Counted from the stretch's first letter, positions 8,981 through 54,129 are shown. The stretch is DNA of 64,000 nt from Candidatus Geothermocultor quzhuomuensis (GCA_015711795.1 JACVJC010000006.1:198-64197); one strand, 5' to 3'. A program made the numbers and translations. Notes: a model not told the origin generated them from the letters alone.

Positions 8981-9063
8981 ATGTCTTAATTTAATGTCCA
9001 CTTTGAGGGGTGCACTCCAAAATTGTAATTAGCAAATAATACAATGGTACTCATCGAATGTTC

Positions 9064-11021: not shown

Positions 11022-11436
11022 TGGAGTGGGGTTACCCATCAAAAAGCTCTCTGCCAAGATTTAATAGGCGAATAGGCGGAGTCAAGTTTTGAATCTTGTG
11101 ATTTGGCGTTGTTAGTTGCTGAAGACTACCATTTGTTAAGTTGCTAAACTTAAAAATGCTTAACGTTAAACATTCGGATTATTACCGACTCTTCTCATAA
11201 TTACTTTTTTGGATTGATTTACTTTGCCCCAAAATGATACTAATTTAATTGTTCCATTCTTAAATTCTTAAGAATATTGGATTAGCTTTTCTCACTTGGT
11301 ATTTTGAGGTTTATTGGATAAGATGATGCTCTGGACTCGTTCTTAATTACTCATAAGAGATTTAAAATGGGATGTTTTTGATTCTTATTCTATCCTATGT
11401 TAAACTAGGCAAAATCAAACTTAAGGAACGCTCTAA

Positions 11437-37744: not shown

Positions 37745-37749
37745 TAGGA

Positions 37750-37908
37750 ATGGATCAGAATATTGTTATTTCTTTTTCACCACAAGATATTATAAGATTG
37801 ACAATGATTGTAGTGGATGAAGACAAGGAGGAAGCACTTCTCTTCTTGAGAGAGCTAGAAAAAAAGGTAAAAGCTGCTCAAGAAAGTCATTGTAAGCCAA
37901 AAATATGA
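37750..37908 (+). CDS. Small hypothetical protein (52 aa), absent from the ORF track
   Basis: MDQNIVISFSPQDIIRLTMIVVDEDKEEALLFLRELEKKVKAAQESHCKPKI*; fills the gap between arsA2 and the next gene; weak AGGA RBS. Confidence 0.6.
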   Translation: MDQNIVISFSPQDIIRLTMIVVDEDKEEALLFLRELEKKVKAAQESHCKPKI

Positions 37909-37932
37909 TAAAGCTGAAAAGGAGAGTTTGTT

Positions 37933-38292
37933 TTGGGAAATAATAAAGAAAAACATGTCGTTCAGATCTTCGGTGTTGAGGCTGGGGCAGGGGGCTGAGG
38001 CCCTGTCTGTGAGCCCGCGGACTGCGGGCCGGCTCAAACTATGGCTGATCAAGCGGCGGCTGTTGAAACCGAGCTAAAGAGAAGCTTTGGCGACCAGATT
38101 GAGGTGCGCTATATCGATATCTTTATGTCTGCTGAAATTAATTCTTACCCTAACGTCATAGCTGCGGTAATGGCTGGCCAGGCTCCTCTTCCCATTACCT
38201 GCATTGACGGACAACCAAAAATAGCTGGGGGAATTTCCGTTCCAATGATTAAAAAGGAACTTGAGTCATTGGGTCTCAAGCCATCTTCTTAA
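37933..38292 (+). CDS. Putative selenoprotein, ArsD-like thioredoxin fold (119 aa, Sec at codon 22)
   Basis: AAGGAG RBS, TTG start at 37933, in-frame TGA at 37996-37998 in GAGG-U-GPVCEPADCGP, frame continuous with ORF 38041-38292; aligns by eye with ArsD. Confidence 0.75.
37999..38035 (+). promoter_or_regulatory. Candidate bacterial SECIS hairpin
   Basis: Stem GCCCGC (38013-38018) / GCGGGC (38024-38029) with G-initiated loop GGACU starting 20 nt after the UGA. Confidence 0.6.
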
Positions 38293-38334
38293 TAAAAAAA
38301 CCATTCCATTTCTGAGAACAGGAGGAGACAGCAA

Positions 38335-38553
38335 ATGCCAGAATACGACTTCAGATGCGGAAATTGCGGGGAAAAGGTAACTATTCGAGCAACCATTAGC
38401 GAAAGGGAAAAAGGCCTTAACTGCCCACATTGTGGTACTAAAGATTTGCACCAGATTTTTAGTGGTATTACCTTTATTGGTTCTTCTACTGGGTCGGATT
38501 TTTCATCTTTCCCACCAGGCTGCATCCCCGGCGGCGGCTGCTGCCCGTCTTGA
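38335..38553 (+). CDS. FmdB-family zinc-ribbon protein
   Basis: MPEYDFRCGNCG...CPHCG; Cys-rich tail GCIPGGGCCPS. Confidence 0.85.
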   Translation: MPEYDFRCGNCGEKVTIRATISEREKGLNCPHCGTKDLHQIFSGITFIGSSTGSDFSSFPPGCIPGGGCCPS

Positions 38554-38631
38554 GGCTCTGTGAAAAGATAAACTAAATCTTGATAGACCAGGTAAGTTTG
38601 GATAATCAATCTTGTAGAAAGAGGTGATTTT

Positions 38632-40581
38632 ATGCATGTAGAAACGGCACGCAGAGAGAAACTTTCCATCGTTGAGAAACTTTTGCCGGTCTGGATTATC
38701 TTAGCCATGGCGGTCGGTATGGGCGTTGGCAAGCTCATCAATGCCTCGAATGTCGAGCTTCTTCCGCCAATTGTGGCTATCATCTCTATTTTTAAAGGCA
38801 CTTTTCAGTTTGATTTGGGTCACAGCATCTCACTGGGCATCCCCATTGGCCTCTTTTTAATGATCTACCCGGCTATGGTGAAGATTCATATGGAAGATGC
38901 TAAGAAGGCGTTGACCAGTGGCCGGGCGGCTGGTGTTGTTGTCTTCTTTAACTATGCTATTAATCCCTTTCTGCTGTGGCTTTTTGGCTGGATTTTTCTA
39001 CGCAATCATCCTGATCTCTGGACTGGACTAATTCTTTTGGGTGTGGCACCGTGTATCGCTATGGTCTTAGTTTGGACCGACCTTGCCAAGGGAAACAACG
39101 CTATGGCTTTAACCCTGATGGCCTGGAACTCCTTGATTCAGATGATCACCACTCCCCTATTTATCTTTTTGATTATTGGTTCTCGGGTTAAGCTTGACAT
39201 AAGTCTGATTGCCGAAAGTGTCATCCTCTTTCTTGGCTTGCCTCTCTTGGTCGGCGTGCTAACCCGAGGGAGCGCCATCAAGCGAAAGGGAGAGGAATGG
39301 TTCGAGAAGAGATTTGTGCCGGTCATAAACAATATTCAGCTCATCGCTCTGCTTTTTACATTGGTCATTATGTTTTCACTTAAGGGCGATGTAATAATAG
39401 CCAAGCCGGAACTCATCTATCTAATGGCAGTTCCTTTGATCTTGTTTTTCGTCACCCTCTTTATGCTGACCTTCTTTGTGGCAAGGCAGGTCAAGCTCAA
39501 TTATGAGGATTCGGTAGCTGTTGCTTTCAACTCTACAGGCAGAAACTTTGAATTATCAATTGCGATTGCTCTGACTGCGTTTGTGGCAAGGCCGATGGTC
39601 GGTGTCTCAACGGTGGTAGGTCCCTTGATAGAGGTTCCAGTGATGCTGGGTCTGGTCTATTTTGCCAAGCGGGTGAGTACCAGCTTGTTTGCTGTTAGAA
39701 AGGAGCCCGAAGCGATGTTTGAGAGAGTGCTTTTTGCTACAGATTTCTCTGATTGTTCCTGGGCAGCTTTTAAGTGCCTTGAGGAGCTCAAAGTGGCCAA
39801 AGAGGTAATCCTAACACACATAGTCGACACAAACATTGCCAGTGAGGGCAAAACAGAATTCTTACTTGAAAGCGCCAGAACAGATATGGACGAGAAAAGA
39901 GAACTCCTTAAGAAACAGGGTTTTTCAGTCAAAACTGTTGTGAGGCTTGGAGTGGTGACCAGAGAAATTCTGAAAGTGGCGGAGGAAGAGAGGGCATCTC
40001 TAATCATGGTTGGCGCCCGAGGAGCCGGCCTTTTGAGAGAACTTGTTTTAGGTAGTACTCCTTCAGAGCTCATCCGCTATGGGCGCTTCCCTGTTCTAAT
40101 CCTTCGTCATCAGGTTGTAGAGCGGATGGGTGAAAGAAAATGTGAGGGCGTTTGTGAGAATTTCTTAAAGAAGGTTGTAGTGCCGACAGATTTTTCCCAG
40201 TATGCAAATCGGGTTCTTGGGCATATAGTCGAGAGAAAATCCGAGTTGCCGGTAGAAGAAGTTGTCCTGGTCAATGTGGTTGATAGAGGTGAAGACGCGC
40301 AGGCAATTGAGGCTCATAAAGAAGAGGCAAAAGCTGAGCTGGCAGCCTTGGCTGAAAAACTCGAGAAAGAAGGTTTCAAAACCAGCGTTCATGTCCATGT
40401 AGGAAGTCCTTCAAAAGAAATTATTAGAGTGGCCGAAGAGGAAGATGTCTCTCTTATTATGATAGGAGCAAAAGGAAAGGGGCTATGGAAGGAAATCCTT
40501 TTGGGGAGCACGTCAGAGCAGGTAGCACGGCATGCAGACCGTCCAGTACTTGTATTTAAGCCATTAGAAAGTTTTGCTTAA
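38632..40581 (+). CDS. acr3: Acr3 arsenite efflux permease fused to two universal stress protein (USP) domains
   Basis: LMIYPAM, GVAPCIAMV, GRNFELSIA, VGPLIEVPV in about residues 1-350; then two USP repeats VLFATDFS...LGSTPSEL and VVVPTDFS...LGSTSEQV. Confidence 0.9.
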   Translation: MHVETARREKLSIVEKLLPVWIILAMAVGMGVGKLINASNVELLPPIVAIISIFKGTFQFDLGHSISLGIPIGLFLMIYPAMVKIHMEDAKKALTSGRAAGVVVFFNYAINPFLLWLFGWIFLRNHPDLWTGLILLGVAPCIAMVLVWTDLAKGNNAMALTLMAWNSLIQMITTPLFIFLIIGSRVKLDISLIAESVILFLGLPLLVGVLTRGSAIKRKGEEWFEKRFVPVINNIQLIALLFTLVIMFSLKGDVIIAKPELIYLMAVPLILFFVTLFMLTFFVARQVKLNYEDSVAVAFNSTGRNFELSIAIALTAFVARPMVGVSTVVGPLIEVPVMLGLVYFAKRVSTSLFAVRKEPEAMFERVLFATDFSDCSWAAFKCLEELKVAKEVILTHIVDTNIASEGKTEFLLESARTDMDEKRELLKKQGFSVKTVVRLGVVTREILKVAEEERASLIMVGARGAGLLRELVLGSTPSELIRYGRFPVLILRHQVVERMGERKCEGVCENFLKKVVVPTDFSQYANRVLGHIVERKSELPVEEVVLVNVVDRGEDAQAIEAHKEEAKAELAALAEKLEKEGFKTSVHVHVGSPSKEIIRVAEEEDVSLIMIGAKGKGLWKEILLGSTSEQVARHADRPVLVFKPLESFA

Positions 40582-40590
40582 GAGGATCCA

Positions 40591-41115
40591 ATGCTCAAAA
40601 AGCAATATGACCGTGTGGAAGAACGAGAAAAAGTATTCGAATTAATGGATCTAAACACCAAGCATGTTCTTGATCTTGGCACTTGTGGCTGCGATTGTAT
40701 GACGATGATTTTGGCCAAAAATGGTTTTAGAGTGACACCAGTCGATAACTCTGAGGAGAAGTTAGCTGAAGCTAAGGAATTTGCACAGCAGGAAGGACTT
40801 TCCGAAAGCATAGATTTTCGGCATGAAGACGCAGCTAATCTTTCTTTTGCCGATGGTTCGTTTGAAGCTGTTGTGGCTTATAATCTTTTGCATCATTGTG
40901 ACGATGTTGACGGAGTCGTTTCAGAGATGTTTCGAGTTTGCAAACCAGACGGAAAAATAATCATTGCTGAACTTAATGCTGATGGGAGAAGGGAGGCAGA
41001 ACATCGGAGGGACCGGCGATTTCTCAAGAAAGTCCAGAAATTGATAGAAAAACAGGGCCGAGAATTTGAAGTATTTGATCTTGATTTCACTCGAGTATGG
41101 ATCGTCAGGAGGTGA
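40591..41115 (+). CDS. Small class I SAM-dependent methyltransferase with Cys-rich motif I
   Basis: VLDLGTCGCDC, VDNS, EDAANLSFADGSFEAV, LHH, FRVCKPDG. Confidence 0.75.
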   Translation: MLKKQYDRVEEREKVFELMDLNTKHVLDLGTCGCDCMTMILAKNGFRVTPVDNSEEKLAEAKEFAQQEGLSESIDFRHEDAANLSFADGSFEAVVAYNLLHHCDDVDGVVSEMFRVCKPDGKIIIAELNADGRREAEHRRDRRFLKKVQKLIEKQGREFEVFDLDFTRVWIVRR

Positions 41116-41119
41116 GATT

Positions 41120-41362
41120 GTGGTAACCGAAAATGAGATAAGAGAAGCGTTGCGAGAGGTGATCGATCCTGAAGTAGGAATTAATCTGGTTGATATGAAT
41201 TTAATAAAGGACATCAAGGTTGATGGCGAGAGGGTAAAAGTCAAGATGACTTTAACTATCCCGACATGCCCGTTGTCAAGTTACCTAACAAATCAAGTTA
41301 AGGAAAAAGTTGAGAGCCTCCCAGGAGTGAAGAGCGCCGAAGTCGAGCTAGTGGATTTGTGA
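41120..41362 (+). CDS. DUF59 / SufT (MIP18) Fe-S cluster assembly protein
   Basis: L.EVIDPEVGINLVDM.LI, MTLTIPTCPL; GTG 41120 follows GGAGG. Confidence 0.88.
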   Translation: MVTENEIREALREVIDPEVGINLVDMNLIKDIKVDGERVKVKMTLTIPTCPLSSYLTNQVKEKVESLPGVKSAEVELVDL

Positions 41363-41372
41363 GGAGGTTAGA

Positions 41373-41603
41373 ATGTGTTTGGGCATCCCAGCGAAAGTAA
41401 TAGAAATTAATGGGTATATGGCAGAGGTGGAAATCGGCGGCACGCGCCGGGAGGCCAGTCTCCAACTGGTACCAGATGCCAAGGTTGGAGATTTTGTGCT
41501 TATCCATACTGGCTATGCAATTCAGAAGATCGATGAAAAAGAAGCTGAAGAAACCCTTGAGCTCCTAAAACAACTGGGCGAAAGCAATGGCAGCGGGGAG
41601 TAA
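41373..41603 (+). CDS. hypC: HypC/HupF hydrogenase maturation chaperone
   Basis: MCLGIPAKV, VGDFVLIHTGYAIQKIDE.EA.ETL. Confidence 0.93.
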   Translation: MCLGIPAKVIEINGYMAEVEIGGTRREASLQLVPDAKVGDFVLIHTGYAIQKIDEKEAEETLELLKQLGESNGSGE

Positions 41604-42600
41604 GGGGATAATACCAAAGCTTGCCACAATTCTAGGCAGGTATTTAATTCTCTGGGTTTTCTTCTCCATGGCCTTAGGCACCTTGGTTGGTTATTCTTTA
41701 CCCAGGGTTTCCCAAAGGCTTGAGCCAATTGTTCCTGCTTTATTATTTATGATGATCTTTCCGGGAATGACCAAGTTAGAGTTAGAACATCTTTTTGAAG
41801 TGGTAAAGGATTATAAAAAGATAGCAGTTTCCTTTGTCACAACGTTTATTATCACCCCCCTCATAGTCGGTCTTTTTGCCTATATTTTCTTGCGGAACTA
41901 TCCGGCTTTTGCCGTTGGTTTTATTCTTCTCGGAATTGCGCCTTGCATCGGGATGGTTTTGGCCTGGATCAATCTGGCGGGCGGAGATAATGCGCTGGCA
42001 GCTGTTCTTGTTTCTGTCAATTCTACCCTCCAGTTCTTTACCATCCCTTTCTGGGTCTATGTGTTAGCTCATGTCTATGTCAAAGTTCCTGTTTTGTTAG
42101 TTGTGCGCAGCGTGGCTTTATTCGTTCTTTTACCAATGATGGCTGGTCTTCTTACCCGTCGCTATTTTCTGGTGAAGCTTGAGACTGAAAGGCACGAGCG
42201 AGTGACTACACTGCTTTCGATCATTGAAAAGCTGGCTATTCTGTTTGCAGTTGTGGTGATTCTTGCTCTGCAGGGCAGAACACTAATTGCTAAACCATGG
42301 ATATTTCTTCTAATGGCATTACCTCTGCTTATTTATTATTATTTTGTGTATTTTGTTGGTTTGGGAGTGAGCAGGCTTTTTAGATTCGACTATCCTACCT
42401 CTGTGGCTATCGCATTCAACGCCAACAGCACAAACTTCGAAATTGCCATCGCTATAGCTTTCGTCAGCTTTTCAAGCGCCACCGCTTTAGCCACCGTGGT
42501 CGGTCCAATTCTCGAACTACCGATCCTGGTTAGTTTGATCCATCTAAGTCAGCGACTGCGACCAGCCTGGGAGAGGAGGCTGAAGGATAGCATGCTATAG
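41587..42600 (+). CDS. acr3: Second Acr3-family arsenite permease
   Basis: MMIFPGM, GIAPCIGMV, NFEIAIAIA, VGPILELP. Confidence 0.82.
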   Translation: MAAGSKGIIPKLATILGRYLILWVFFSMALGTLVGYSLPRVSQRLEPIVPALLFMMIFPGMTKLELEHLFEVVKDYKKIAVSFVTTFIITPLIVGLFAYIFLRNYPAFAVGFILLGIAPCIGMVLAWINLAGGDNALAAVLVSVNSTLQFFTIPFWVYVLAHVYVKVPVLLVVRSVALFVLLPMMAGLLTRRYFLVKLETERHERVTTLLSIIEKLAILFAVVVILALQGRTLIAKPWIFLLMALPLLIYYYFVYFVGLGVSRLFRFDYPTSVAIAFNANSTNFEIAIAIAFVSFSSATALATVVGPILELPILVSLIHLSQRLRPAWERRLKDSML

Positions 42601-42639: not shown

Positions 42640-43371
42640 GTGCTTGAGGTTAAAGATTTAACTGTTGAGGTTGACAGAAAGACTATCCTACACAACGTGA
42701 ATCTGGCTATCGACGCTGGAGAAACTCATGCTCTGCTTGGCCCGAACGGCAGCGGAAAGACGACTCTTCTTATGGCCATTATGGGAATGCCCCGTTATCG
42801 TATTAAAAAGGGTCAGGTCCTTTTTCAAGGCAAAGACATCACCAAACTTTCCATTGATGAACGAGCCCGTTTAGGGATAGGACTGGCTTTTCAGAGACCG
42901 CCAGCAGTCAGAGGGGTTAAGACTCGTCAGATTGTTGAGCTATGTCTGGGAGAAAAAAACGCAAAAAAGGTGGAAGAGCTGGCACGAAAGCTCAATCTTG
43001 CTGCGATGCTTGAGCGAGACGTCAATCAAGGTTTCTCAGGTGGAGAAATAAAACGTTCGGAGATGCTTCAGCTCCTTGCCCAGAACCCGTCCTTTGCCAT
43101 GTTTGATGAGCCGGAATCCGGTGTCGATCTGGACAATATTGCCGTGGTTGGCGAAGCGATTAACGAGATTTTGCAGAAAGAGCGGATACGTGAGAAAAAG
43201 AAGGCTGGGCTAATAGTAACCCACACCGGACACATTCTTGATTACGTGAACGCTGACAGAGGGCATGTTCTGATGGAAGGAACAATTGTCTGCGAGGGAA
43301 ATCCGCGGGATCTTTTCGCTGATATTCGAGCTCACGGCTATGAGGAGTGTGTCAAATGTCGAAGGTGCTAA
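42640..43371 (+). CDS. sufC: Fe-S assembly ABC ATPase SufC (minimal SmsC-like)
   Basis: GPNGSGKT, RDVNQGFSGGEIKRSE, FDEPESGVD, VTHTGHILDY. Confidence 0.9.
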   Translation: MLEVKDLTVEVDRKTILHNVNLAIDAGETHALLGPNGSGKTTLLMAIMGMPRYRIKKGQVLFQGKDITKLSIDERARLGIGLAFQRPPAVRGVKTRQIVELCLGEKNAKKVEELARKLNLAAMLERDVNQGFSGGEIKRSEMLQLLAQNPSFAMFDEPESGVDLDNIAVVGEAINEILQKERIREKKKAGLIVTHTGHILDYVNADRGHVLMEGTIVCEGNPRDLFADIRAHGYEECVKCRRC

Positions 43372-44618
43372 ATAAAACCCTGGCTAAAAATAAAATAGAA
43401 TGGCGCAGGAAAGCGGAGGCTGTGAAGAGCAAGCCTGCCACCTTCGGTCCGGATATAGACCTCTCCAAATTTGCTACCCCTACTGAGAAGGAGAAGGTTG
43501 AATCACTTGAATCCCTTTCCAAGCAGGCTAAAGAGGCGGCTCTTTACGTCGGGATCGATGCTGATGAATCCTTTAGAGCTGGCAGCTACTTTCAAATAGA
43601 CCACTCAGTTATTTACGAGCGTGTTCAGCAGGCCTATCAGGGGCAATTGGAGATTATGTCAACTTCTGAGGCCCTTGAGAGATATGATTGGGTGGCGGAC
43701 TTGTGGTGGCAGGCAGTTCACGTTGATCAGGACAAGTACACTGCTCTGGCTGAACTCAAGCATACTCACGGCTACTTTATTCGGGTGTTTAAAGGCCAAA
43801 AGATTGAGCGGCCCATTCAGGCCTGTCTTTTTCTGGCAGAGAACAATATCAGCCAGAATGTCCACAATTTAATTGTCATTGAAGACGATGCCGAGGCGCA
43901 AATTATTACTGGCTGCACCCTTCACCCGCGGGTTGAAGAAGGACTGCACGTGGGAATCAGTGAGTTCTTCCTGGGTAAAAATGCTTCTCTGATGTTCACT
44001 ATGATCCACAACTGGGCCGAGAATTTCGATGTTCGTCCGCGAACCGGCGCCGTCTTAGAAGACAACGCCACCTTTGTCTCAAACTACATTCTGCTCCGCC
44101 CGGTCAAATCCATCCAGATGTTTCCGGCTGCTTTTCTTAAGGGTAAAGATTCGCGGGCTCGCTTTAATACCATTCTCTATGGAATGAAGGACTCTTATAT
44201 TGATGTTGGTTCAAAAGCTGTCTTAAGCAACAAGGAGACAAAAGCAGAAGCAATCGCTCGGGCAGTGGCATGCGACCAGTCGCAGATCTACGCCAGAGGT
44301 CAGCTCATCGGCCAGGTCAACGAGAGCCGGGCCCATCTCGATTGCCGCGGCATTCTCTTTTCAAGCGAAGCCCAAATTCGCGCCATCCCTGAGCTTTTTG
44401 CCGAAAAAGCCCCGTTGAGTGAACTCTCCCATGAGGCAGCTATCAGCCCTATTGCCGAAGAGGAAGTCGAGTATCTTATGGCCAGGGGGCTATCCAAGGA
44501 AGAAGCAGTCTCCACAATTACCCGTGGTTTCTTAGATATCGATATACCCGGCCTTCCTCCGATCCTTAAAGGCTATATCCAGCGAGTCCTGGATGCTGCC
44601 ACCAAGGAAGCTCTTTAA
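43356..44618 (+). CDS. sufB: SufB/SufD-family Fe-S scaffold (SmsB-like)
   Basis: HVGISEF, HLDCRG, AIPEL, ELSHEAAI..I..EE..YLMARG..EEA...I.RGF. Confidence 0.85.
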   Translation: MSKVLNKTLAKNKIEWRRKAEAVKSKPATFGPDIDLSKFATPTEKEKVESLESLSKQAKEAALYVGIDADESFRAGSYFQIDHSVIYERVQQAYQGQLEIMSTSEALERYDWVADLWWQAVHVDQDKYTALAELKHTHGYFIRVFKGQKIERPIQACLFLAENNISQNVHNLIVIEDDAEAQIITGCTLHPRVEEGLHVGISEFFLGKNASLMFTMIHNWAENFDVRPRTGAVLEDNATFVSNYILLRPVKSIQMFPAAFLKGKDSRARFNTILYGMKDSYIDVGSKAVLSNKETKAEAIARAVACDQSQIYARGQLIGQVNESRAHLDCRGILFSSEAQIRAIPELFAEKAPLSELSHEAAISPIAEEEVEYLMARGLSKEEAVSTITRGFLDIDIPGLPPILKGYIQRVLDAATKEAL

Positions 44619-45173: not shown

Positions 45174-47720
45174 ATGGTTATTCTTCACTTAAGAAAGGCT
45201 AAGTATTATTTGAAAAAGCTGCTGGCTTTAACGCTGGTTATTTTTCTCAACTTGAGTTTTGTCAGAGTGGCAGCAAAACCAATGACCTTAACCACAATTA
45301 CCATTGATGGCAATTTTTCTGACTGGGCGGCTGTTAAGAGTGATCCTGACAATCTTTTGGCTGATACCGTTGGTGATAACGACCCGGATTCGAACTCGCA
45401 ACAAAATCCTAATTGGACATCTGACCGCGATTTAACTCATTTTGCTTTTACTTGGGACAATACTTACCTTTATTTTTATTTCAGAGTTTCCGTTTTTCAG
45501 GCAAGACAAACTAGCTTTTTGGTTTACATCGATAAGGATTATAGTAATACTTTGACCAACTCCGATTATCTTATTGATTATCAGTTCAATGGGAGTTCAT
45601 TCCAGAATGTTGGCTCAGGTCTTTATTATTACAGCGCTATTAATCCATCGGGAGACCAAGTCACAGGAGATGGTGAATGTGAGCCTGGAGCAAGAGGCGC
45701 TGAAATTTTAAAGCCTTTATCTTCTGGCGATGGAGCTGGTGGTGGCGAGGGAAATCTGGAGAAAGAGACAAGGATTGCTTGGTCAGCTCTAGGCCTTCCT
45801 CCAGGGACACCCTTGCGGTTTCATATCTCAACTGCTCTAAATTCGTCTCAACTTCCAAATCAAGTTGTTGACAACGCTGGTCCCAAATCAACTTTATATG
45901 CTGGTGTTTCCGTTGAGCCTAATCGCTCTGCTTCGGCGCCAAAAGGAACAGTAGTTACATATACTCATACTGTTCAAAACACTGGCAACTCGACTGATAC
46001 TATTAACCTTTCGGCTACTTCTAGCAAGGGCTGGCAAGTTGGGATTTACGATGCTTCTGGCGATACCACTATTTCCTCTGTTACTTTAGCCCCTAATGAG
46101 AGCACGGTTATAACGGTTAAAGTAACTATTCCATCTAATGCGCAAAATGGAGAATCTGATGTTACAACTGTTCGAGGTACCTCAACCGTTGATTCAAGTA
46201 AAAGTGATACGGCAACAGATACAACGACTGTGGGCTCCATTACTATAACGCCTGATAATAGTGGCTCGATGACAACTGGAACAGCTATTTCCTATTACCA
46301 CACAGTGGCTAACAATACTAGTGCTACCGAGACAGTTCAGCTTTCCGCTACTTCATCTCAGGGCTGGGATGTTGTTTTTAAAGACGCCTCAGGAAGTACC
46401 ACAATTACCTCTGTTGTTATCGGACCAAACTCTTCAGTTGGTATTATTGCTCAAATTTTTGTTCCCTCAGGGGCTTCAATAGGCGACCAGGATGTCACTA
46501 CTGTCCGTGCAAAGTCAGAAAACGACCCATCTAATCAAGATGAAGCTAAAGACATAACAACAGTTAAGAAAAGAGTTTTAATTGACCCTGATAATGAAGG
46601 AGCAACTGGAGCAGGGACAACTATTTCATATCAACATACCATAACTAACAGCTGGAATACAACTGACACCATTAATTTGACTTATACAAACAGTCATAAC
46701 TGGACTGTTAAGATTTATGATTCAGGGGGAATTAACGAGATTTCTTCAGTCACTCTCGGACCAAATGGTGAATCGACTGACATAATTGTTCGAGTTAGCG
46801 TCCCTATTGAAGTCCCGATAGGGACTGTTAACTCTACGACTATTGCAGCAATCTCCGCATCTAATCCTAACTATTTTGATATAGCTGTTGACCTGACCCG
46901 AGTCCAGCAGCTCATTACTTACAAGGATGCGGCTCGTACCCAAGTGTGTACTTTCTTTCGGTTAAAGAATGGGTCGAAAGTCTATGCGCGAGCTACAAAC
47001 CTTATAAGAAACCAAGTTTACAAATTCCGATGGATTGACGCAAGTGGTAACGATGTAAGGTTGAGTGGGGAAATGCAACCAAATGCCGATGGCATCCTTG
47101 ATGACGATTACACAATGAGTGGAACCGAGACGGTTGGAAACTGGACATTGGTTTTATACAGAAAATCGGGAAACAACTTTATTGAGGTTACTAGAACAAA
47201 CTTTATTGTTACTTATGATGCTCAAATTATCAGTCTAATGGCGACTGATGCCCCCAACCTTAACCAGGATATTTTTGTCGACAGCACGGTCACAAATAAC
47301 TGTGAGCAAACCATTACTAATTCAATTATTAATTATGTCATTTGGTGGGATAGCAATGGTAATGAGGAATTTGATGCAGGTGATACTTATATAGGCTCTG
47401 ATGGAAATCCTTATACTTGGGATGGAACAAGCACCGTTTCTACCCATGAAACAACGGGAGTCAATGTACCAACAGGTGGAACTTGGAGCGACCCGGGTTG
47501 GACTATTTCAAATTCGAACTTTCCCTATCAGGGAACTTATAAGATTACTGCTACCTGGAAAACTCAGTCAGGGCTTCTTATTGATGAGAAAACAACAAGC
47601 TTCTTTTCTATACCGACCCTTGGCTATCCTTTACTTTTTGCTCTAATTGGCATGGGCTCTTATCTCCTTTATCGAAAAAGAGAAGAGGTAGACTTCTTAT
47701 TTAAAAGGGTGGTGTCATGA
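45174..47720 (+). CDS. Secreted S/T-rich surface protein: TIDGNFSDW N-domain, three Ig-like repeats, IPTL-CTERM-type anchor
   Basis: Signal peptide; about 110-aa repeats at 45903, 46233 and 46566; C-terminus SIPTLGYPLLFALIGMGSYLLYRKRE. Confidence 0.8.
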   Translation: MVILHLRKAKYYLKKLLALTLVIFLNLSFVRVAAKPMTLTTITIDGNFSDWAAVKSDPDNLLADTVGDNDPDSNSQQNPNWTSDRDLTHFAFTWDNTYLYFYFRVSVFQARQTSFLVYIDKDYSNTLTNSDYLIDYQFNGSSFQNVGSGLYYYSAINPSGDQVTGDGECEPGARGAEILKPLSSGDGAGGGEGNLEKETRIAWSALGLPPGTPLRFHISTALNSSQLPNQVVDNAGPKSTLYAGVSVEPNRSASAPKGTVVTYTHTVQNTGNSTDTINLSATSSKGWQVGIYDASGDTTISSVTLAPNESTVITVKVTIPSNAQNGESDVTTVRGTSTVDSSKSDTATDTTTVGSITITPDNSGSMTTGTAISYYHTVANNTSATETVQLSATSSQGWDVVFKDASGSTTITSVVIGPNSSVGIIAQIFVPSGASIGDQDVTTVRAKSENDPSNQDEAKDITTVKKRVLIDPDNEGATGAGTTISYQHTITNSWNTTDTINLTYTNSHNWTVKIYDSGGINEISSVTLGPNGESTDIIVRVSVPIEVPIGTVNSTTIAAISASNPNYFDIAVDLTRVQQLITYKDAARTQVCTFFRLKNGSKVYARATNLIRNQVYKFRWIDASGNDVRLSGEMQPNADGILDDDYTMSGTETVGNWTLVLYRKSGNNFIEVTRTNFIVTYDAQIISLMATDAPNLNQDIFVDSTVTNNCEQTITNSIINYVIWWDSNGNEEFDAGDTYIGSDGNPYTWDGTSTVSTHETTGVNVPTGGTWSDPGWTISNSNFPYQGTYKITATWKTQSGLLIDEKTTSFFSIPTLGYPLLFALIGMGSYLLYRKREEVDFLFKRVVS
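45903..46904 (+). repeat. Three tandem 110-111 aa Ig-like domain repeats
   Basis: Shared pattern P.....G....Y.HT..N.....TI.L....S.GW.V...D..G...I.SV.L.PN.S..I.V...P......D.TTV. Confidence 0.85.
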
Positions 47721-48304
47721 ACTGGCAACTTCTGTTATCGTTTGCTATTTTTTATACTGTTATTACCTTTACACTGTGGAAGAAGCGGCTTTGGCTTCTT
47801 TATTACACCGAAGCTGTTTTTGGGATGACTTTATTCCTCGTCTTCTTCTGCCGAGATTTAGGGCTGGAAAAAGCTTTAGAAAGATCAGAGATCTTCTATG
47901 CCCATTATTTTACTTCAATTTTAAAAATCCCCACTCAAGTCGTGAGTTTTAACTCAATTATCCATGCTGAGCGCTACGGATGGTCTATTCTTTCAATTGG
48001 TCTGGAGTGTTCTGCTCTTTTAGAAATGGCTGTTTTTTTTGGTTTGGTTATTTTCTACCCCGGCTTCAACTGGCACCAAAAGGGGATTTACTTACCAATA
48101 GGTATTTTAGGAACCTATATTATTAACTTAATAAGAGTTATGGTTATTGTTGGTATGGTCTTTTTTCTGGGTAAAAGCTATGTCTTTATTGCCCACGCAA
48201 TAATTGGAAGATTCCTTTTTTTTACCTTGATTGTTTACCTTTACTGGTTGCTCATAACTAAACCTTCGCTTAAAAAAATCAGAGCGGAGGTGGAGGCAAG
48301 ATGA
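47717..48304 (+). CDS. Exosortase/archaeosortase-family transpeptidase (XrtG-like)
   Basis: Multi-TM; Cys-Arg-His triad LECSALLE / NLIRV / AHAIIGR. Confidence 0.85.
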   Translation: MNWQLLLSFAIFYTVITFTLWKKRLWLLYYTEAVFGMTLFLVFFCRDLGLEKALERSEIFYAHYFTSILKIPTQVVSFNSIIHAERYGWSILSIGLECSALLEMAVFFGLVIFYPGFNWHQKGIYLPIGILGTYIINLIRVMVIVGMVFFLGKSYVFIAHAIIGRFLFFTLIVYLYWLLITKPSLKKIRAEVEAR

Positions 48305-49995
48305 TGGAAGGACTTTGGGCTTTCTTAATCTTTTGGAGTGTTTGGATTCTCATCCCGATTCTGGTTGATGGGGTAGATTCTCTTTATAGAATTATTTTAG
48401 TCTTAGCTAAAGGACGAAAGAGGGAAGAATTTAAAGTTTCTGAAGAAGACTTGCCCAATGTTTCAGTGATAATTCCGGCACGCAATGAGGCAAAGGTGAT
48501 TGACCGCTGCCTTAATTCTTTGAAGATTCAAGATTATCCTCATGATAAGCTCGAAGTGATTGTAGTTGATGATGGGAGCACTGATGGAACTTCGAGTATT
48601 GTTAATGGGCATATTAACGGGAATGATAGGAACAACAAAAATGGCTACATCAATGGCAATGGCGTTAGGATTAATGGCAAGTTTATTCCGATTGGCGATT
48701 TTGGTGGTGTTATAAAGTTACTTGTTAAGAAAGGGGAAGGAAAAGCAGCAGCTTTAAATGCTGGAATAAGTTTAGCTCACGGAGAAATTATAATTAATAT
48801 CGATAGCGATGTTGTGCTTGTGCCTAATGCGATTAGAAAGATGGCAGAAGCTTTTTTGAAAGATAAAACTTTAGGGGCGGCAACTGGCAACATTGAAATT
48901 AATTGGGAAATCATTGAAGAGCGTGACCGGCATGGAAATTTGGTACTTGATAGAAACGGCGAGATTAAACTTAAGAAACTTACTTCAATGGAGATGTTTT
49001 TAGCTAAATGCCAGTTCTTGGAGTATCTAAATGCTTTTAGATTAGGCAGGCAAGCTCAAGACATTACTAAAAGTATGTTCACTTTAGCAGGAGCTTTTTC
49101 TGCTTTTCGCCGGTATGTTCTCCTTAAGTCTTCACTTTACCAAGCAAAGACTGTTTCAGAGGATGCTGATTTAACCTTAGATATTCACCGCCAAAAAGTA
49201 CGAATTGGTTATGTTGCTGAAGCAAAGGCTTACCTTGAACCAGTAACTGACTGGGATAAACTTTATGCTCAAAGGATTAGGTGGGACCGAGGCAAGATGG
49301 AAGTTTGTGGCCTTCATGGGGATATAGTTGGTAACTTGAAATTTGGCAACCTTGGCTGGCTGGGCCTTCCTAAAATGCTTCTTATCGATCACACCATGGC
49401 TTTTCCTAGGCTTATTTGGACATTTCTTTTACCCCTCTTTTTCCTCTTTGGTTATTCTCCTATAGTAATCTTTTATTCTTTGGTGGCTATGTATCTTTTC
49501 TACATGACTATTGATTTTTTAACCACGGCTTTCGCTTATTATTTAGTTGATAATGATACTAAAAAAGTTATTGGATCTTCGTTTTTTTATTGCTTCTGGT
49601 TACCTCTTTACCGGTTTATCCTTTTTTATTTCCGAGTATCTGGCTATCTTGTTGTCTTTAAAGATCCTCCAACCTGGAGCGTTTCTGGACCCATTAACGG
49701 TTTTCGAAATGGTCTTAATAATTATAAGAGGAGAATGGGCGAGACAACTGCTTTCTTCCTAGCAACTTTAATGGTTGTTTTTTCCCTTTTGGCTGAGGGG
49801 GTAAGGAAAAGTCCCTTTGTTGTTTGGGACAAACTTAAAGGGTCATTTGTAATGTTTATGGCAATTATGGTTTTCTTAATGGATTCAAAATTGGCTGAAA
49901 GCTATAGGAGAAAAGTTCATGTTAACTTGACGGTGCTAAAAAGAAGATTAGCCCAAGCAACTGTCTTTTTCATCAGCTTTTGGGGAGGGGTGTAA
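48301..49995 (+). CDS. Membrane GT2 glycosyltransferase of the exosortase-G-associated type
   Basis: FWSVWILIP, IIPARNE, VVDDGSTD, GKAAALN, IDSD, FTLAGAFSAFRR, SEDADLT, QRIRW; Asn-Gly-rich insert and long C-terminal extension. Confidence 0.82.
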   Translation: MMEGLWAFLIFWSVWILIPILVDGVDSLYRIILVLAKGRKREEFKVSEEDLPNVSVIIPARNEAKVIDRCLNSLKIQDYPHDKLEVIVVDDGSTDGTSSIVNGHINGNDRNNKNGYINGNGVRINGKFIPIGDFGGVIKLLVKKGEGKAAALNAGISLAHGEIIINIDSDVVLVPNAIRKMAEAFLKDKTLGAATGNIEINWEIIEERDRHGNLVLDRNGEIKLKKLTSMEMFLAKCQFLEYLNAFRLGRQAQDITKSMFTLAGAFSAFRRYVLLKSSLYQAKTVSEDADLTLDIHRQKVRIGYVAEAKAYLEPVTDWDKLYAQRIRWDRGKMEVCGLHGDIVGNLKFGNLGWLGLPKMLLIDHTMAFPRLIWTFLLPLFFLFGYSPIVIFYSLVAMYLFYMTIDFLTTAFAYYLVDNDTKKVIGSSFFYCFWLPLYRFILFYFRVSGYLVVFKDPPTWSVSGPINGFRNGLNNYKRRMGETTAFFLATLMVVFSLLAEGVRKSPFVVWDKLKGSFVMFMAIMVFLMDSKLAESYRRKVHVNLTVLKRRLAQATVFFISFWGGV

Positions 49996-50067
49996 TCCGA
50001 AGAGAACTCATTAGAGATGTAGCTTTAAGCAGATTAGGAAGAAAGTTTGAGAAAGTAAGGAGTCAAT

Positions 50068-52398
50068 ATGGAAATTGAAAGATACAAGTTAGGCTTAATT
50101 GAGTTAATAAAAGGAAACAGGAGCAAAATTTTCCTTGCTCTTCTTGTCACAGTCTCAGCTACAGTGATATATTTCAGGCTGATAATCCAACTTCAACGGG
50201 GACCTGGTTGGGATACTTTTGCTTTTCTCTTAAATGGTTTGGAATTTGCTGGTAAGGGAAAGAACTATTTTGAAATTTATCGTCCCCCTTTGCTTTCAGC
50301 TCTTTGTGCCATTTTTTTCCGATTTGGCTTTGACCATGAATTTGTAATTTTCTTGATTGACAGTTTTCTTACAATGCTAGGGATAATTGGGGCATACTAT
50401 CTTTTTCGTCTCCGATTTTCTCCTTCGATAAGCTTTTTAGGCGGCTTATTATTTCTCTCTTTTCCTGATATGATGGAAAACTTGACTCAGGGCATCACTG
50501 ATATTATTTCAATATCCTTGTCTGTTTGGACAATTTATTTTGTCATACGTGCTGTTGAAGATGATAGCAGGTACTTTCAAATTGCAGTACCACTCTGGAT
50601 TCTAACTTTTATGGCTCGGTTCACTGGCGGCTTGATGATTTTGCCTGTTTTATTTTACATAGTGATAAGGCCTAAAGCGGAAAAGTATTTGCTAAATATT
50701 TTTCGTGGTAGTTTATGGTCTCTCCTGATTTTGGTGCCTTACTTTGTTTACTACTGGTTTCGTCTTGGGAGCCCCCTTATTCAACTCGGCGAACCTTTTA
50801 AGGCTGTTGGAGCAACTACAAGATTAGGTATGTTATCGGACCCAATAGAGCCTTCTACTTATTTTGCTACCCATTTTCTAGACTTTCTCTCAGTATTGCC
50901 TTCCAAATATCTCTTTCTTGCATTAGTAATTTTAGGTTTGATAGGCTATGCGGGGCATCTCTTCAAATTAAGGAAACAAAAGCTTTCCCTATTTGGCTTT
51001 TTCTTCTTGTTGCTAACTGGTCTCCTCCTTAGTCTGCTCTTCTTTGTCAAGATAATGAACTTTATGATAGTAAACATCCTCTGGTTTATATATTTAGGCA
51101 TTGTGTTTCCAATGTTTTTTGACTTTGATAGGAAAGCGGCTATTGGTTTAGTCTTTCTATTCTGGTTTGTAATTTTCTTTAACACTCATAGCCATATGCT
51201 TGTTAAAGTTACTCGGTATTACATTACAATGATTCCCTCGATAATTTTTTTCATCATTTATAGCCTCGATTGGGTCAAAACTTTACTTCCAGAGAAGAAA
51301 ATTAGTGCTCAGTTTGCCTTTACTTTGTTAGTTGGCGCTTCAGTAATTATGGTTGGTGTTTCAATATATTTTTCCTATCAATGGCTTAAAGCAATGAAAG
51401 ATTGGCGTATCCCAGGTGTTCAAATGGCTGCAGAGTGGTTTAACCGTTTTGAAAAGAAGGAGAACTTGAAGATTGTTGGAGATTACTTTGTGGCTTGGAG
51501 ATGGTATCTAAGGCGAGAGGTGATCCCAATGCCTCCTCTTAAAGGTGGTTCTCGTGCATTCAACCACGAGTTAGAAAAAATGAATGCTGACTATTACTTT
51601 ACAATTTCAGACCCTGGTCCACTAAATTCTTATAAGCTCTTGAAAGACTTCAAGACAGCGCGAGTATACAAGAAATCAGCTTCTCGACCGCCTGGCAGCC
51701 AAGATGTCTTTCTCATCGGACGAGATGTGGACCATTATATCGATGATATACTTGGGTTTAAGAAGTACTATGTAACAAAAGAAAACTCACCATATCCCGA
51801 TGCTTATAGTGATGTTTCTTATACATATATCGATGAATATTCTCTTGATAAGTTAAAAAGTTATGACGCTGTCCTTCTTTACAATTTTCGCTGGCACGAC
51901 CTAAGAAAAGCTGAAGAACTGTTAAAGCAATATGTTAGTGAGGGCAGATCAGTAATTATCGATGGCTCTAGGAACATGGTGGGCCTAAAGTATAATTTAG
52001 ACAATGCAGTCCTTTTTGACATCATAATCAAGCGCAAATCAACTCCTAAAAATTCTAAAGTGAACATTAATGACGGTTTTCTTGCAAACAAAGTCGATAC
52101 CCATAATTTTTCTCCTTTTTTAACTGAGACAGGAGAAGCCTGGTTTGGTACAACCTATGAGGATGTAAATAAACAGTTTAGGGTCCTAGCTACTCTCAAC
52201 GATGATGTACTTGTAGCAGTTCAAAGGGTTGGCAAAGGGAAGATTATTTGGGTTGGCTTCAATTTATTCTTCCATTCCTTTTATTATCGAAATAAAGATG
52301 AAAAACAGCTTGTCAAGAATATATTTGCTTTAATTTCAATGAATAAAGCAAGCATCGGGTCACGTTTAGAGGAGGAAAGCGATGGAAAGAGCCTCTAA
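50068..52398 (+). CDS. GT-C fold (ArnT/PMT, GT39/GT83-like) lipid-linked-sugar glycosyltransferase with large extracellular C-domain
   Basis: PGWDTF, YRPPLLS, DIIS, MARFTG, TRYY; many TM helices followed by a soluble tail. Confidence 0.72.
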   Translation: MEIERYKLGLIELIKGNRSKIFLALLVTVSATVIYFRLIIQLQRGPGWDTFAFLLNGLEFAGKGKNYFEIYRPPLLSALCAIFFRFGFDHEFVIFLIDSFLTMLGIIGAYYLFRLRFSPSISFLGGLLFLSFPDMMENLTQGITDIISISLSVWTIYFVIRAVEDDSRYFQIAVPLWILTFMARFTGGLMILPVLFYIVIRPKAEKYLLNIFRGSLWSLLILVPYFVYYWFRLGSPLIQLGEPFKAVGATTRLGMLSDPIEPSTYFATHFLDFLSVLPSKYLFLALVILGLIGYAGHLFKLRKQKLSLFGFFFLLLTGLLLSLLFFVKIMNFMIVNILWFIYLGIVFPMFFDFDRKAAIGLVFLFWFVIFFNTHSHMLVKVTRYYITMIPSIIFFIIYSLDWVKTLLPEKKISAQFAFTLLVGASVIMVGVSIYFSYQWLKAMKDWRIPGVQMAAEWFNRFEKKENLKIVGDYFVAWRWYLRREVIPMPPLKGGSRAFNHELEKMNADYYFTISDPGPLNSYKLLKDFKTARVYKKSASRPPGSQDVFLIGRDVDHYIDDILGFKKYYVTKENSPYPDAYSDVSYTYIDEYSLDKLKSYDAVLLYNFRWHDLRKAEELLKQYVSEGRSVIIDGSRNMVGLKYNLDNAVLFDIIIKRKSTPKNSKVNINDGFLANKVDTHNFSPFLTETGEAWFGTTYEDVNKQFRVLATLNDDVLVAVQRVGKGKIIWVGFNLFFHSFYYRNKDEKQLVKNIFALISMNKASIGSRLEEESDGKSL

Positions 52399-53119
52399 AA
52401 GTAAGGTTAGTATAGTGATTCCCTGTTTCAACGAGGAGAAAGGGTTACCTTCGCTTATCTCTAAACTAGAATCTGTGAAAAACTGTTTGCTGGAAAGTTT
52501 TGAGGTAGAGCTTGTTTTCGTAGATGATGGAAGCACAGATGCTACCTATAAATTACTTGATGAAAAATATCAAAATGTAAAGGGTGTGCAAATGGTGAAA
52601 CATATTCAAAATCGAGGGATTGGCGCTGCTTTAAGGACTGGTTTTTCAAAAACAAGTGGGGATATTATTGTAACAGTTGATAGTGATTGTACTTATGACC
52701 CTGAAGAAATTCCTTACCTTCTTTCTTATTTAAAAGACGGCGTTGATGTGGTGGTGGGTTCACCTTATCATCCTAAAGGTAAGTGTCTTGGAGTCCCTGG
52801 TTATAGATTTTTATTGAGCAAATGGCTTTCCTTAATTTATTCTTTTTTACTTAAATCAGACATTCATACTTACACTGGGTTGTTTAGAGCTTACCGTCGG
52901 AGCGTTCTTGACGAACTTCATTTTGTTTCTGATGGGTTTGTTGCCTTAGCTGAGATTTTAATCAAGATTATTTTAGGAGGCAAGAAAGTGGTTGAATATC
53001 CAACTACCCTTTGTGTTCGGCAGTATGGGGAATCTAAACTAAAGATTTTAAAAACTATTTTTGAACATTTAAAACTTATTAGCGTTTTAATTCTTAAAAA
53101 GAAAACTTTGAAGGAGTGA
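52382..53119 (+). CDS. GT2 polyprenol-phosphate glycosyltransferase (DPM1/ArnC-like)
   Basis: IPCFNEE, VDDGSTD, NRGIGAA, TVDSDCTYDP, GESKL. Confidence 0.85.
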   Translation: MERASKSKVSIVIPCFNEEKGLPSLISKLESVKNCLLESFEVELVFVDDGSTDATYKLLDEKYQNVKGVQMVKHIQNRGIGAALRTGFSKTSGDIIVTVDSDCTYDPEEIPYLLSYLKDGVDVVVGSPYHPKGKCLGVPGYRFLLSKWLSLIYSFLLKSDIHTYTGLFRAYRRSVLDELHFVSDGFVALAEILIKIILGGKKVVEYPTTLCVRQYGESKLKILKTIFEHLKLISVLILKKKTLKE

Positions 53120-54129
53120 TTAAAGTGAAAGTTTTAATTACTGGAGTAGCTGGTTTCATTGGCTCTAATTTATTAGATGCTTTATTAGAAAGGAAATATG
53201 AAGTTTTTGGAATCGATAATTTGTCAGTTGGCTCAATTGAGAATATTGAGCACAATTTAGCGAACCCAAATTTTAAATTTATTCAAGGTGATGTGAGGGA
53301 GATGAATGTATTTGAAAGTATTGATAAAGATGTTAGTCAAATTGTTCACTTGGCTTCTCTTAAAATCCCCAAGGAGGGACATGCGGAAGAGACTTTGCTC
53401 AATAATACTCAGGGAATGCATTCTGTTTTAGAATTTGCGCGCAAATACGGCGCAAGCGTCATTTTTGCTTCAACATCAGATGTTTACGGTAAAAGCAATC
53501 AATTTCCTTTTAAAGAGGATGAAAATTTGGTATTGGGCTCAACTGACATTTCCAGGTGGAGTTATGCTTCATCGAAGATTTTCGACGAACATCTTTGTTT
53601 TGCTTATCAATCTACATTTGGTGTTCCCGTTACTGTTTTAAGGTATTTTAATTCTTATGGGCCAAGACACAATCTAACTTGGAGAGGTGGTCCCCAGTCC
53701 CTTTTCATTGAGGCTATTTTAAAAGGCAGAGAAATAGTAATTCATGGCGATGGGAGCCAGCGAAGATGCTTTACTTATGTTTCGGATATTGTAGATGGAA
53801 CAATTTTAGCTATGGAAAGGGAAGAAGCTAAAGGAGAGATCTTTAATATTGGAAATGACCAAACCGAGATATCAATTAAGGATTTGGCTTACCTAATTAA
53901 AGATCTTTCTGGCCAGAAAGGCGATTTAAAAATAAGGTATCTTCCTCATGAAAAACTTTTTGGAAAATTTGATGAAGTTAAGAGACGAATTCCAGACTTA
54001 AGTAAGGCAAAAAAAATATTAGGATTCACTCCAAAAATAAGCTTAGTAGAAGGCTTAAAAAGAACGATCGAGTGGCAAAAAAATTACTACTTAAAGAAGG
54101 ATAAAGTTTTACATATGAGTAAGGGATAA
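53116..54129 (+). CDS. NAD-dependent epimerase/dehydratase, UDP-glucuronate decarboxylase-like
   Basis: ITGVAGFIGSNL, FASTSDVYG, RWSYASSK, RYFNSYGPR, GDGSQRRCFTYVSD. Confidence 0.82.
   Translation: MIKVKVLITGVAGFIGSNLLDALLERKYEVFGIDNLSVGSIENIEHNLANPNFKFIQGDVREMNVFESIDKDVSQIVHLASLKIPKEGHAEETLLNNTQGMHSVLEFARKYGASVIFASTSDVYGKSNQFPFKEDENLVLGSTDISRWSYASSKIFDEHLCFAYQSTFGVPVTVLRYFNSYGPRHNLTWRGGPQSLFIEAILKGREIVIHGDGSQRRCFTYVSDIVDGTILAMEREEAKGEIFNIGNDQTEISIKDLAYLIKDLSGQKGDLKIRYLPHEKLFGKFDEVKRRIPDLSKAKKILGFTPKISLVEGLKRTIEWQKNYYLKKDKVLHMSKG

Follow-up and report, generated by a model that had tools for sequence, protein, structure and literature searches.

A probable dedicated protein-sorting and glycan operon from a sister clade of XrtG exosortases in an Aquicultoria-like actinobacterium

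The 64,000-nucleotide stretch of DNA from Candidatus (Ca.) Geothermocultor quzhuomuensis that was analysed here (GCA_015711795.1 JACVJC010000006.1:198-64197; hereafter the window) contains, at positions 45174-54129, genes for a large exported protein with a C-terminal sorting signal (the cargo), an exosortase, three glycosyltransferases and a sugar-nucleotide enzyme. The evidence argues that this locus is probably a dedicated protein-sorting and glycan operon, in which one enzyme serves one adjacent cargo, and that it represents a sister clade of the XrtG exosortases in Ca. Aquicultoria-like Actinomycetota. By sequence comparison, the cargo, the exosortase, the membrane-bound family 2 glycosyltransferase (GT2) and the GT-C-type glycosyltransferase are divergent homologues of the parts of XrtG systems, and only the short signal motif differs. 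As the same gene order is found in 35 related loci, the locus is not a chance arrangement. Exosortases are widespread; to our knowledge, no chemistry has been demonstrated for those of bacteria, and XrtG has never been tested.

The operon consists of six co-directional, mostly overlapping genes, all on the plus strand, and continues past position 49995, the end of the stretch initially noted. The open reading frame (ORF) of the cargo (45174-47720, 848 amino acids) is followed by those of the exosortase (47717-48304, 195 amino acids) and of a processive-type membrane GT2 synthase (48301-49995, 564 amino acids). Both junctions are ATGA overlaps, as reported in the initial annotation, and each has a Shine-Dalgarno-like string 5' of it. 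Next come genes for a GT-C-type membrane glycosyltransferase (50068-52398, 776 amino acids, with a PMT_2 domain and a C-terminal PTPS_related/GATase1-like domain), a small GT2 of the polyprenyl-phosphate sugar synthase type (ArnC/Dpm1/AglJ-like; 52382-53119, 245 amino acids), which overlaps the GT-C gene by 17 nt, and an NAD-dependent sugar-nucleotide epimerase/dehydratase (LegB/UDP-xylose synthase/ArnA-like; 53116-54129, 337 amino acids), which starts in a GTGA overlap with the small GT2 gene. Upstream of the cargo gene lies an AT-rich gap of 550 bp. Promoter and terminator scans gave results at or below shuffle expectation.

The 195-amino-acid protein exceeds the cut-off of the exosortase/archaeosortase signature TIGR04178 (51.8 versus 23 bits, E=7.7e-14) and has the intact Cys/Arg/His triad that had been claimed for it. 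Cys98 (codon 48008-48010) occupies a column at least 90% conserved in 25 relatives, and Arg140 (48134-48136) and His160 (48194-48196) occupy columns that are invariant in these relatives. Hydropathy identifies four or five hydrophobic helices and, with the secondary structure of an AlphaFold 2 (AF2) model of a relative, suggests a fold of about five transmembrane (TM) helices; with the topology predicted by the positive-inside rule, Cys98 and His160 would be close to where helices 3 and 5 end on the outer side. The conserved Cys, Arg and His, and the predicted polytopic membrane location, both identify the protein by sequence as a member of the exosortase/archaeosortase superfamily. Its best subfamily is XrtG (TIGR03110; 72.2 bits, E=5e-20), with a score below the curated cut-off of 102.75; XrtX is the runner-up, at 32.6 bits, and XrtH is not among the 7 families matched at E<=0.01. 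In one member of the clade (P0050), Ser replaces the catalytic Cys (G-A-E-S-S-S), and this protein may be an inactive or serine-type variant.

The tail of the cargo reads ...K-T-T-S-F-F-S-I-P-T-L-G-YPLLFALIGMGSYLLY-R-K-R-EEVDFLFKRVVS. The motif F810-F-S-I-P-T-L-G817 (47601-47624) is followed by a TM helix (residues 818-833, YPLLFALIGMGSYLLY) and the basic cluster R834-K835-R836, which together occupy 47625-47681. The initial annotation described the tail as IPTL, a TM helix and RKR; these letters are present in this order, and the twelve residues that follow RKR were not mentioned. The family consensus is F-[YF]-S-[VI]-P-x-L-G. It was tabulated, with positions counted from the proline, from 34 distinct tails of relatives collected with a pattern that itself forced S, [IVL], P and [GW]: D is present at position -10 in 32, K or R at -8 in 30, T at -7 in 28, F at -4 in all 34 and L at +2 in 27, with V and I at position -1 in a ratio of 25:9, and T (18) or A (9) most often at +1. 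The motif core over the 34 tails is [VI]-P-[TAIVS]-[LF]-G and, judged from this comparison, 'IPTL' is one of the forms taken by a conserved signal, F-[YF]-S-[VI]-P-x-L-G plus a TM helix plus a basic cluster.

A tail-bearing ORF is present in 34 of the 35 related loci, where it is fused to, upstream of or, in L012, divergent from the enzyme gene. In 11 loci (L007, L012, L014, L018, L020, L022, L026, L028, L029, L030 and L032) the same tail is carried, beside the enzyme, by an unrelated cargo, and no Pfam domains were found in the five of these cargo bodies that were checked. Such tails include SIPTLGYPLL in L030, NIPTLG in L018, FVPTLGWG in an Anaerolineales locus, YVPTLGE and SVPSLG in the two archaea and, on the opposite strand, KIPTLD in L012. 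Modularity, the same tail on unrelated bodies, is among the criteria published by Haft for a dedicated sorting signal (bioRxiv 10.1101/2023.06.07.544157). By sequence, the window family has the features of a tripartite signal, with motif, TM helix and basic cluster on a protein with an N-terminal signal peptide, and with modularity that follows the enzyme. All NCBIfam sorting-domain models stay below their cut-offs on the window tail and on every signal with the proline motif; the only marginal passes for relatives' tails, the generic LPXTG_anchor at 17.0 and 16.2 bits (cut-off 15.9) and the sortase-B target model at 18.3 (cut-off 18.15), span only the TM and basic segment. As a control, true Firmicu tails were recognised by TIGR04145 whereas tails of the window clade were not.

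The body of the cargo consists of a signal peptide, an N-terminal domain resembling carbohydrate-binding modules (CBM) of the CBM9/CBM74 type, three CARDB/NEW3-type immunoglobulin (Ig) repeats, on which Pfam places FixG_C and NPCBM_assoc, two further Ig-like domains and the sorting signal. The predicted Sec signal peptide (45174-45275, residues 1-34) has a basic n-region, a hydrophobic core and V-A-A before K35; it was called from the translation and a hydropathy peak at residues 12-30, and the cleavage site is a putative one. The N-terminal domain (45285-45878, residues ~38-235) opens with ITIDGNFSDW at residues 42-51, in agreement with the TIDG.F.DW start domain first noted. The whole cargo has no match to the Firmicu-CTERM model TIGR04145 at E<=0.01; its N-terminal domain alone scores 33.3 bits (E=4e-8, cut-off 50) over profile positions 19-135 of 191, and the corresponding domain matches in 6 of 8 relatives as well. 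By this profile comparison, the domain is homologous to the Firmicu-CTERM body; in pairwise BLASTP with the Lactococcus lactis Firmicu-CTERM protein, only the string ITIDGNFxDW is in common.

An AF2 model of the N-terminal domain (mean predicted local distance difference test, pLDDT, 84.7) retrieved glucodextranase (1ug9), CBM9 (1i82) and CBM74 (7uwv) in a Foldseek search of the PDB, with E-values of 5e-4 to 7e-4 and TM scores of 0.37-0.47. A PDB profile search with the cargo N-terminus gave a weak match to CBM74 (E~0.05), and a PDB sequence search with the whole cargo gave nothing. We have moderate confidence, from these models, that the domain is a CBM-like beta-sandwich. The suggestion that the cargo is an S-layer-like protein was not borne out, as it has this domain and Ig-like repeats instead and nothing in it indicates a lattice. 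Forty homologues of the cargo were found, all without a name or annotated as 'hypothetical', the nearest being 62% identical. Seven paralogue-like relatives of the cargo (P0288-P0293 and P0296) for the most part share its I-D-G-x-F-x-D-W domain at the N-terminus, although P0291 lacks a match to the pattern, and its repeats, with a different C-terminal domain and no sorting tail; by sequence, the cargo body thus also occurs in an unsorted form.

The 564-amino-acid protein is, as initially annotated, a GT2 (PF00535, E=4e-29), and its best family is the XrtG-associated TIGR03111 (272.2 bits, E=7e-81, cut-off 363.95), followed among NCBIfam models by PgaC/IcaA (128 bits, equivalog cut-off 422). 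BLASTP aligns it with the Lachnospira eligens TIGR03111 protein at 28% identity (E=1e-59). The motifs of processive beta-glycan synthases, D, DxD, ED and QxxRW, are present as DDGS90, DSD168, ED287 and QRIRW324, and are flanked by five predicted TM segments, one at the N-terminus and at least four at the C-terminus; the scores stay below every equivalog cut-off. Within the catalytic domain is a low-complexity insert rich in Asn and Gly (NGHINGNDRNNKNGYINGNGVRINGK; residues ~100-140, 48600-48720). It is missing from the L. eligens protein and longer in L012. The GT-C protein matches PF13231 (62.6 bits) and PF10131 (40.1 bits) and has no NCBIfam match. BLASTP with the PTPS-related protein of L. 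eligens is marginal (E=5e-4), so that the equivalence of these two proteins is based on the shared PF10131 and on gene position only. The small GT2 (PF00535, 120.9 bits) has ArnC-type, dolichyl-phosphate hexose transferase and AglJ as its top NCBIfam models, and the epimerase/dehydratase has NCBIfam matches of 140-155 bits, in both cases below cut-off.

Relatives of the enzyme were collected by exhaustive HMMER searching, a word-index protein search having given only one, and comprise 226 clusters at 50% identity with E<=1e-3 and 54 with E<=1e-30. Those near the window protein have profile scores for XrtG of 72-99.5 bits, below the cut-off, and distant ones pass at 137-173 bits; true XrtG proteins score 137-199 bits. 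In a rough neighbour-joining tree, XrtG references from Aneurinibacillus, L. eligens and L. lactis are basal and the window clade is derived, with a few intermediates. We read the clade, from these scores and this tree, as a sister clade of XrtG that has its own signal and falls outside the current model. One subclade (P0004, P0012, P0018-P0021, P0025, P0027, P0028, P0032-P0035 and P0046-P0048) has an XrtG-like domain with a low-complexity acidic C-terminal extension of 110-540 amino acids and, in the three proteins inspected (P0018, P0025 and P0028), an extra hydrophobic segment near the end of this extension. A Saccharibacteria bin (L004) has two copies, at 5444-6553 and 10784-11632, one of which is also fused to a giant upstream ORF.

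The 35 related loci were identified by scanning one genome per GTDB species with an 8-sequence subset of the 25-sequence alignment, and all are from metagenome-assembled genomes. Most are from Actinomycetota (Coriobacteriia; Ca. Aquicultoria/Geothermocultoraceae), and the remainder from Anaerolineales/Chloroflexota, some 'Eubacteriales' bins, the one Saccharibacteria bin and three archaea (Methanobacterium, Methanofastidiosia and Methanomicrobia). A GT2 homologous to that of the window is encoded after the enzyme in all 35 and a GT-C follows in 25; in L025, all six genes are present in the same order as in the window. Genes for GGDEF/EAL proteins, or for a histidine kinase and a LytTR protein, adjoin several XrtG-type cassettes, that of the L. 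lactis plasmid among them, with examples in L012 (2909-4276 and, on the minus strand, 88-2754), L039 (4413-6098), L040 (1517-3502 and 5769-8255) and L001 (75-806). This neighbourhood suggests that XrtG-type cassettes may be under cyclic di-GMP (c-di-GMP) or two-component control, which fits a regulated matrix or biofilm function.

The host of the window locus is, as judged from DnaB, a low-GC, Ca. Aquicultoria-like member of the Actinomycetota, consistent with the actinobacterial relative proposed at the outset. The closest named relatives of the DnaB, 71-74% identical, are labelled Actinomycetota and Ca. Subteraquimicrobiales; identity is 64% to a Ca. Aquicultor protein and ~62% to Firmicutes. 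An archaeal origin, considered when weak Loki/Heimdall-CTERM matches were seen, was ruled out as the SSB, L9, DnaB and YchF proteins are bacterial. Searches for the window's own enzyme in the assembly index and for a sequencing run both came back empty.

In nine of the 35 loci (L004, L006, L009, L010, L013, L017, L021, L025 and L031), a single ORF spans both cargo and enzyme. Fusion is also seen in L040 and in P0281 and P0282, in which the target part shares 56-57% identity with the window cargo; the fused proteins are P0005-7, P0011, P0013, P0016, P0023, P0037, P0039, P0053, P0281 and P0282. In these, the sorting motif is directly before the first TM helix of the enzyme (TM1), which doubles as the signal helix. 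The junction in P0281 is ...T-F-Y-S-V-P-T-L-G-FVLLLFLGTVCGFLVY-R-F-R-R-R-R-L-W-L-L-Y-Y..., the left half of which matches the tail of the window cargo (...YLLY-R-K-R) and the right half the window enzyme past TM1 (W-K-K-R-L-W-L-L-Y-Y). In an alignment of 32 sequences, the TM helix and the basic cluster of the tails share their columns with TM1 and R-K-R-x-W of the enzymes, and the split form in the window differs from a fusion by ~38 residues, namely the residues after the basic cluster and the enzyme's own TM1. An AF2 model of the fused C-terminal 324 residues of P0281 (pLDDT 93.6) has F-Y-S closing the last beta-strand, V-P-T-L as a four-residue coil and TM1 starting from the Gly; a Foldseek search of the PDB with this model gave matches only for the Ig-like domain, and none that was exosortase-like.

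Fused forms occur at five or more places in the tree, and fusions are present in true XrtG proteins too, as P0121 and P0092 match both TIGR03110 and TIGR04145. NCBIfam NF045489 is named 'XrtG N-terminal extension domain-like protein', from which it follows that curators have noticed such extensions of XrtG; no paper describing cargo::exosortase fusions was found in the literature searched. These proteins may be natural single-chain enzyme-substrate pairs that would be expected to cut themselves, and that are part of an unmodelled, multi-phylum sorting system in which cargo and enzyme have been fused or split five or more times, an interpretation whose chances we put a little short of even.

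If the window locus is the dedicated sorting and glycan operon that we favour, the cargo would be exported via Sec and held by its C-terminal helix, with R-K-R on the cytoplasmic side of the membrane. The exosortase would then cut the [VI]-P-x-L coil just outside the membrane via a thioester at Cys98, with help from His160 and Arg140, chemistry that is modelled on the homologous archaeosortase A (PMC7157517). The cargo would presumably be passed to an acceptor, most likely a lipid or glycan from the GT2/GT-C machinery, or alternatively be released by water. The GT2 would make the glycan, which the GT-C protein could possibly decorate outside the cell; its donor would be a polyprenyl-phosphate sugar that the small GT2 makes from a nucleotide sugar modified by the epimerase. 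With its CBM-like domain, the cargo could bind the glycan, and the product would be a protein-polysaccharide surface matrix.

The homologies listed could also be explained by an ordinary, divergent XrtG/Firmicu-CTERM member with the same signal class and function, new only in its taxon. Such a member would account for a gene order that is that of true XrtG loci, for the match of the cargo N-terminal domain to the Firmicu-CTERM model, for tree intermediates such as P0088, which at 102.5 bits barely misses the cut-off of 102.75, and for the fusions in true XrtG (P0121 and P0092). The Firmicu-CTERM match, however, stops short of the tail, Firmicu tails have no conserved Pro and are seen by TIGR04145 whereas those of the window clade are not, the enzyme, GT2 and cargo all fall under the curated cut-offs, and the cassette has no QueD-like gene, which is present in all three of the true loci inspected; with these points on both sides, we regard this explanation as unlikely. 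The tail could also be a permanent membrane anchor, and the exosortase homologue could assist in making the polysaccharide, for instance as an assembly factor of the EpsH kind, and cut nothing. Anchoring by itself would not call for conservation of F-[YF]-S-[VI]-P-x-L-G immediately outside the membrane in unrelated proteins of several phyla, nor would such a factor explain the conservation of the catalytic Cys, Arg and His or why cargo and enzyme have repeatedly been joined at precisely this motif, as expected of an enzyme-substrate pair, and the homologous archaeosortase A cleaves and lipid-anchors its substrates (PMC7157517). This anchor-only alternative, which is in keeping with the constant company of glycosyltransferases and with there being no experimental cleavage reported for any XrtG-type system in the literature searched, therefore seems to us quite improbable.

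The initial annotation had itself proposed a hybrid, in which an XrtG-type enzyme is combined with the proteobacterial IPTL-CTERM signal, whose usual enzyme is XrtH. The letters invite this, as the window tail spells I-P-T-L and continues with an aromatic residue, a TM helix and basic residues, and fused relatives have V-P-T-L-G-E-W, loosely like IPTLxxWG. The IPTL-CTERM model TIGR04174 has no match to the window tail at E<=10, and the two best relatives reach 11.2 bits (one of the fused proteins, over profile positions 1-9) and 8.6 bits, where 20.5 is the cut-off; V outnumbers I and T is present in only 18 of the 34 tails; the conserved context, F-[YF]-S before and G-[WEF]-P after, is unlike IPTLxxWG; the window enzyme has no XrtH match; and, as the cargo body, enzyme and glycosyltransferases are all from XrtG-system parts, no import is required. 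Such a hybrid is very improbable. Among the models to which the initial annotation had pointed, TIGR03110 and TIGR03111 are best but below cut-off and TIGR04174 is unmatched; the exosortase/archaeosortase signature TIGR04178 is passed. Its broader proposal, an XrtG-like and new dedicated enzyme-target pair outside Firmicutes, stands, with TIGR03110 the best subfamily, TIGR03111 the best GT2 family and the signal unmodelled.

Several points weigh against the interpretation of the locus as a dedicated sorting and glycan operon. As the enzyme, GT2 and cargo are all below curated NCBIfam cut-offs, their naming is by relative similarity. Twelve residues (EEVDFLFKRVVS) separate the basic cluster R834-K-R836 from the stop codon, and the tail helix is short and moderately hydrophobic, with a mean Kyte-Doolittle value of ~1.4 over 16 residues versus a threshold of 1.6. 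Only one tail of this type is present within the 64-kb window, and the pairing of the enzyme with a single target is based on this window alone. The identity of the acceptor is purely inferred, and the literature searched contained no functional test of XrtG-type cleavage, in Firmicutes or elsewhere.

Exosortases have long been hypothesised to couple surface proteins to exopolysaccharide, a hypothesis that becomes testable where, as here, the enzyme is constantly paired with a processive GT2 and a GT-C protein. With this locus, the XrtG idea reaches beyond Firmicutes into deep-branching Actinomycetota, Chloroflexota and archaea, with a distinct recognition motif. If the interpretation of the fusions is correct, they would be the first tractable handle on signal recognition, cleavage and attachment by an exosortase, and would offer a simple assay, namely self-cutting at [VI]-P-x-L-G and the group left on the new C-terminus. 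A new sorting-domain model and a new subfamily model would give names to proteins that now have none or are listed as 'hypothetical'.

Elsewhere in the window, which has a GC content of ~38%, the region from 36 to 44 kb stands out with 0.44-0.47 GC versus ~0.37 in the remainder. The genes at 35914-42600 encode two ArsA-type ATPases, an SBF-family transporter (probably ACR3-type) that carries two fused Usp domains, a small methyltransferase and another transporter of the SBF family, and this block looks like an acquired arsenic-resistance island. Directly after it are paired genes for a SufC-like ATPase (42640-43371) and a SufB/D-like protein (43347-44618), the latter with 'SUF-like minimal system SmsB' as its best model (187 bits, cut-off 650). 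Some 4 kb at 7300-11430 has no ORF >123 amino acids, only short ORFs on both strands, and a 13-bp repeat of 2.5 copies as its sole tandem array; this region and the window as a whole gave zero matches when scanned for tRNA and Rfam families. A small GGDEF protein is encoded at 59686-60252, 5.5 kb downstream of the operon.

Among known systems, synthases of the PgaC/IcaA, cellulose-synthase and NodC type share with the window GT2 the D, DxD, ED and QxxRW motifs and flanking TM helices; the window protein differs in scoring far below 422 bits and in having the Asn/Gly-rich insert and ~100 extra C-terminal residues. IPTL-CTERM is a many-targets-per-genome system specific to XrtH, as its TIGRFAMs descriptions have it. 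The IPTL-CTERM/XrtH pair (TIGR04174/TIGR04177) of Proteobacteria resembles the window system in having a tripartite C-terminal signal, and the window tail has the letters I-P-T-L followed by an aromatic residue, but the tail does not match TIGR04174, the enzyme is not XrtH-like and other motif positions are conserved; searches for literature on IPTL-CTERM/XrtH found nothing relevant. ArtA, the archaeosortase of the PGF-CTERM system, has many targets and is not operon-coupled to a processive GT2, and we know of no ArtA fused to its cargo. It belongs to the same homologous superfamily, with the TIGR04178 signature and a tripartite signal on a surface glycoprotein, and differs in subfamily and in its PGF motif. 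ArtA (archaeosortase A) of Haloferax volcanii is the precedent, with experimental support, for cleavage of the substrate and its subsequent attachment to lipid (PMC7157517).

The XrtG system is the closest. In the three true XrtG loci inspected, the order is Firmicu-CTERM protein, XrtG, TIGR03111 GT2, QueD-like gene and a TIGR03766 GT-C or PF10131 protein, in accord with the pairing of enzyme, GT2 type and Firmicu-CTERM target cited in the initial annotation; in the Aneurinibacillus locus, the cargo has no name, the QueD-like gene is upstream of the cargo and there is no annotated GT-C or PF10131 protein. The window locus lies outside XrtG as currently delimited by the TIGR03110 cut-off, a TIGR04145 target and a Firmicutes/Bacillota host. 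Its scores are below the cut-offs (72 versus 103 bits for the enzyme, 272 versus 364 for the GT2 and 33 versus 50 for the cargo). The signal is F-[YF]-S-[VI]-P-x-L-G, whereas Firmicu tails have T-x-G-[AGS]-S-x-G, a TM helix and KKKK with no conserved Pro, and the window cargo, with its additional Ig-like domains, is far larger. The cassette lacks a QueD-like gene and gains genes for a Dpm1-like GT2 and an epimerase, and the hosts of the clade are Actinomycetota, Chloroflexota, a Saccharibacteria bin and methanogens rather than Firmicutes. Common to both are the order of cargo, an exosortase of ~190-200 amino acids, a membrane GT2 and a large GT-C/PTPS-related membrane protein, the one-to-one, adjacent arrangement of enzyme and cargo, the I-D-G-x-F-x-D-W domain at the cargo N-terminus, a predicted five-helix enzyme with the Cys/Arg/His triad, cargo::enzyme fusions and nearby c-di-GMP genes.

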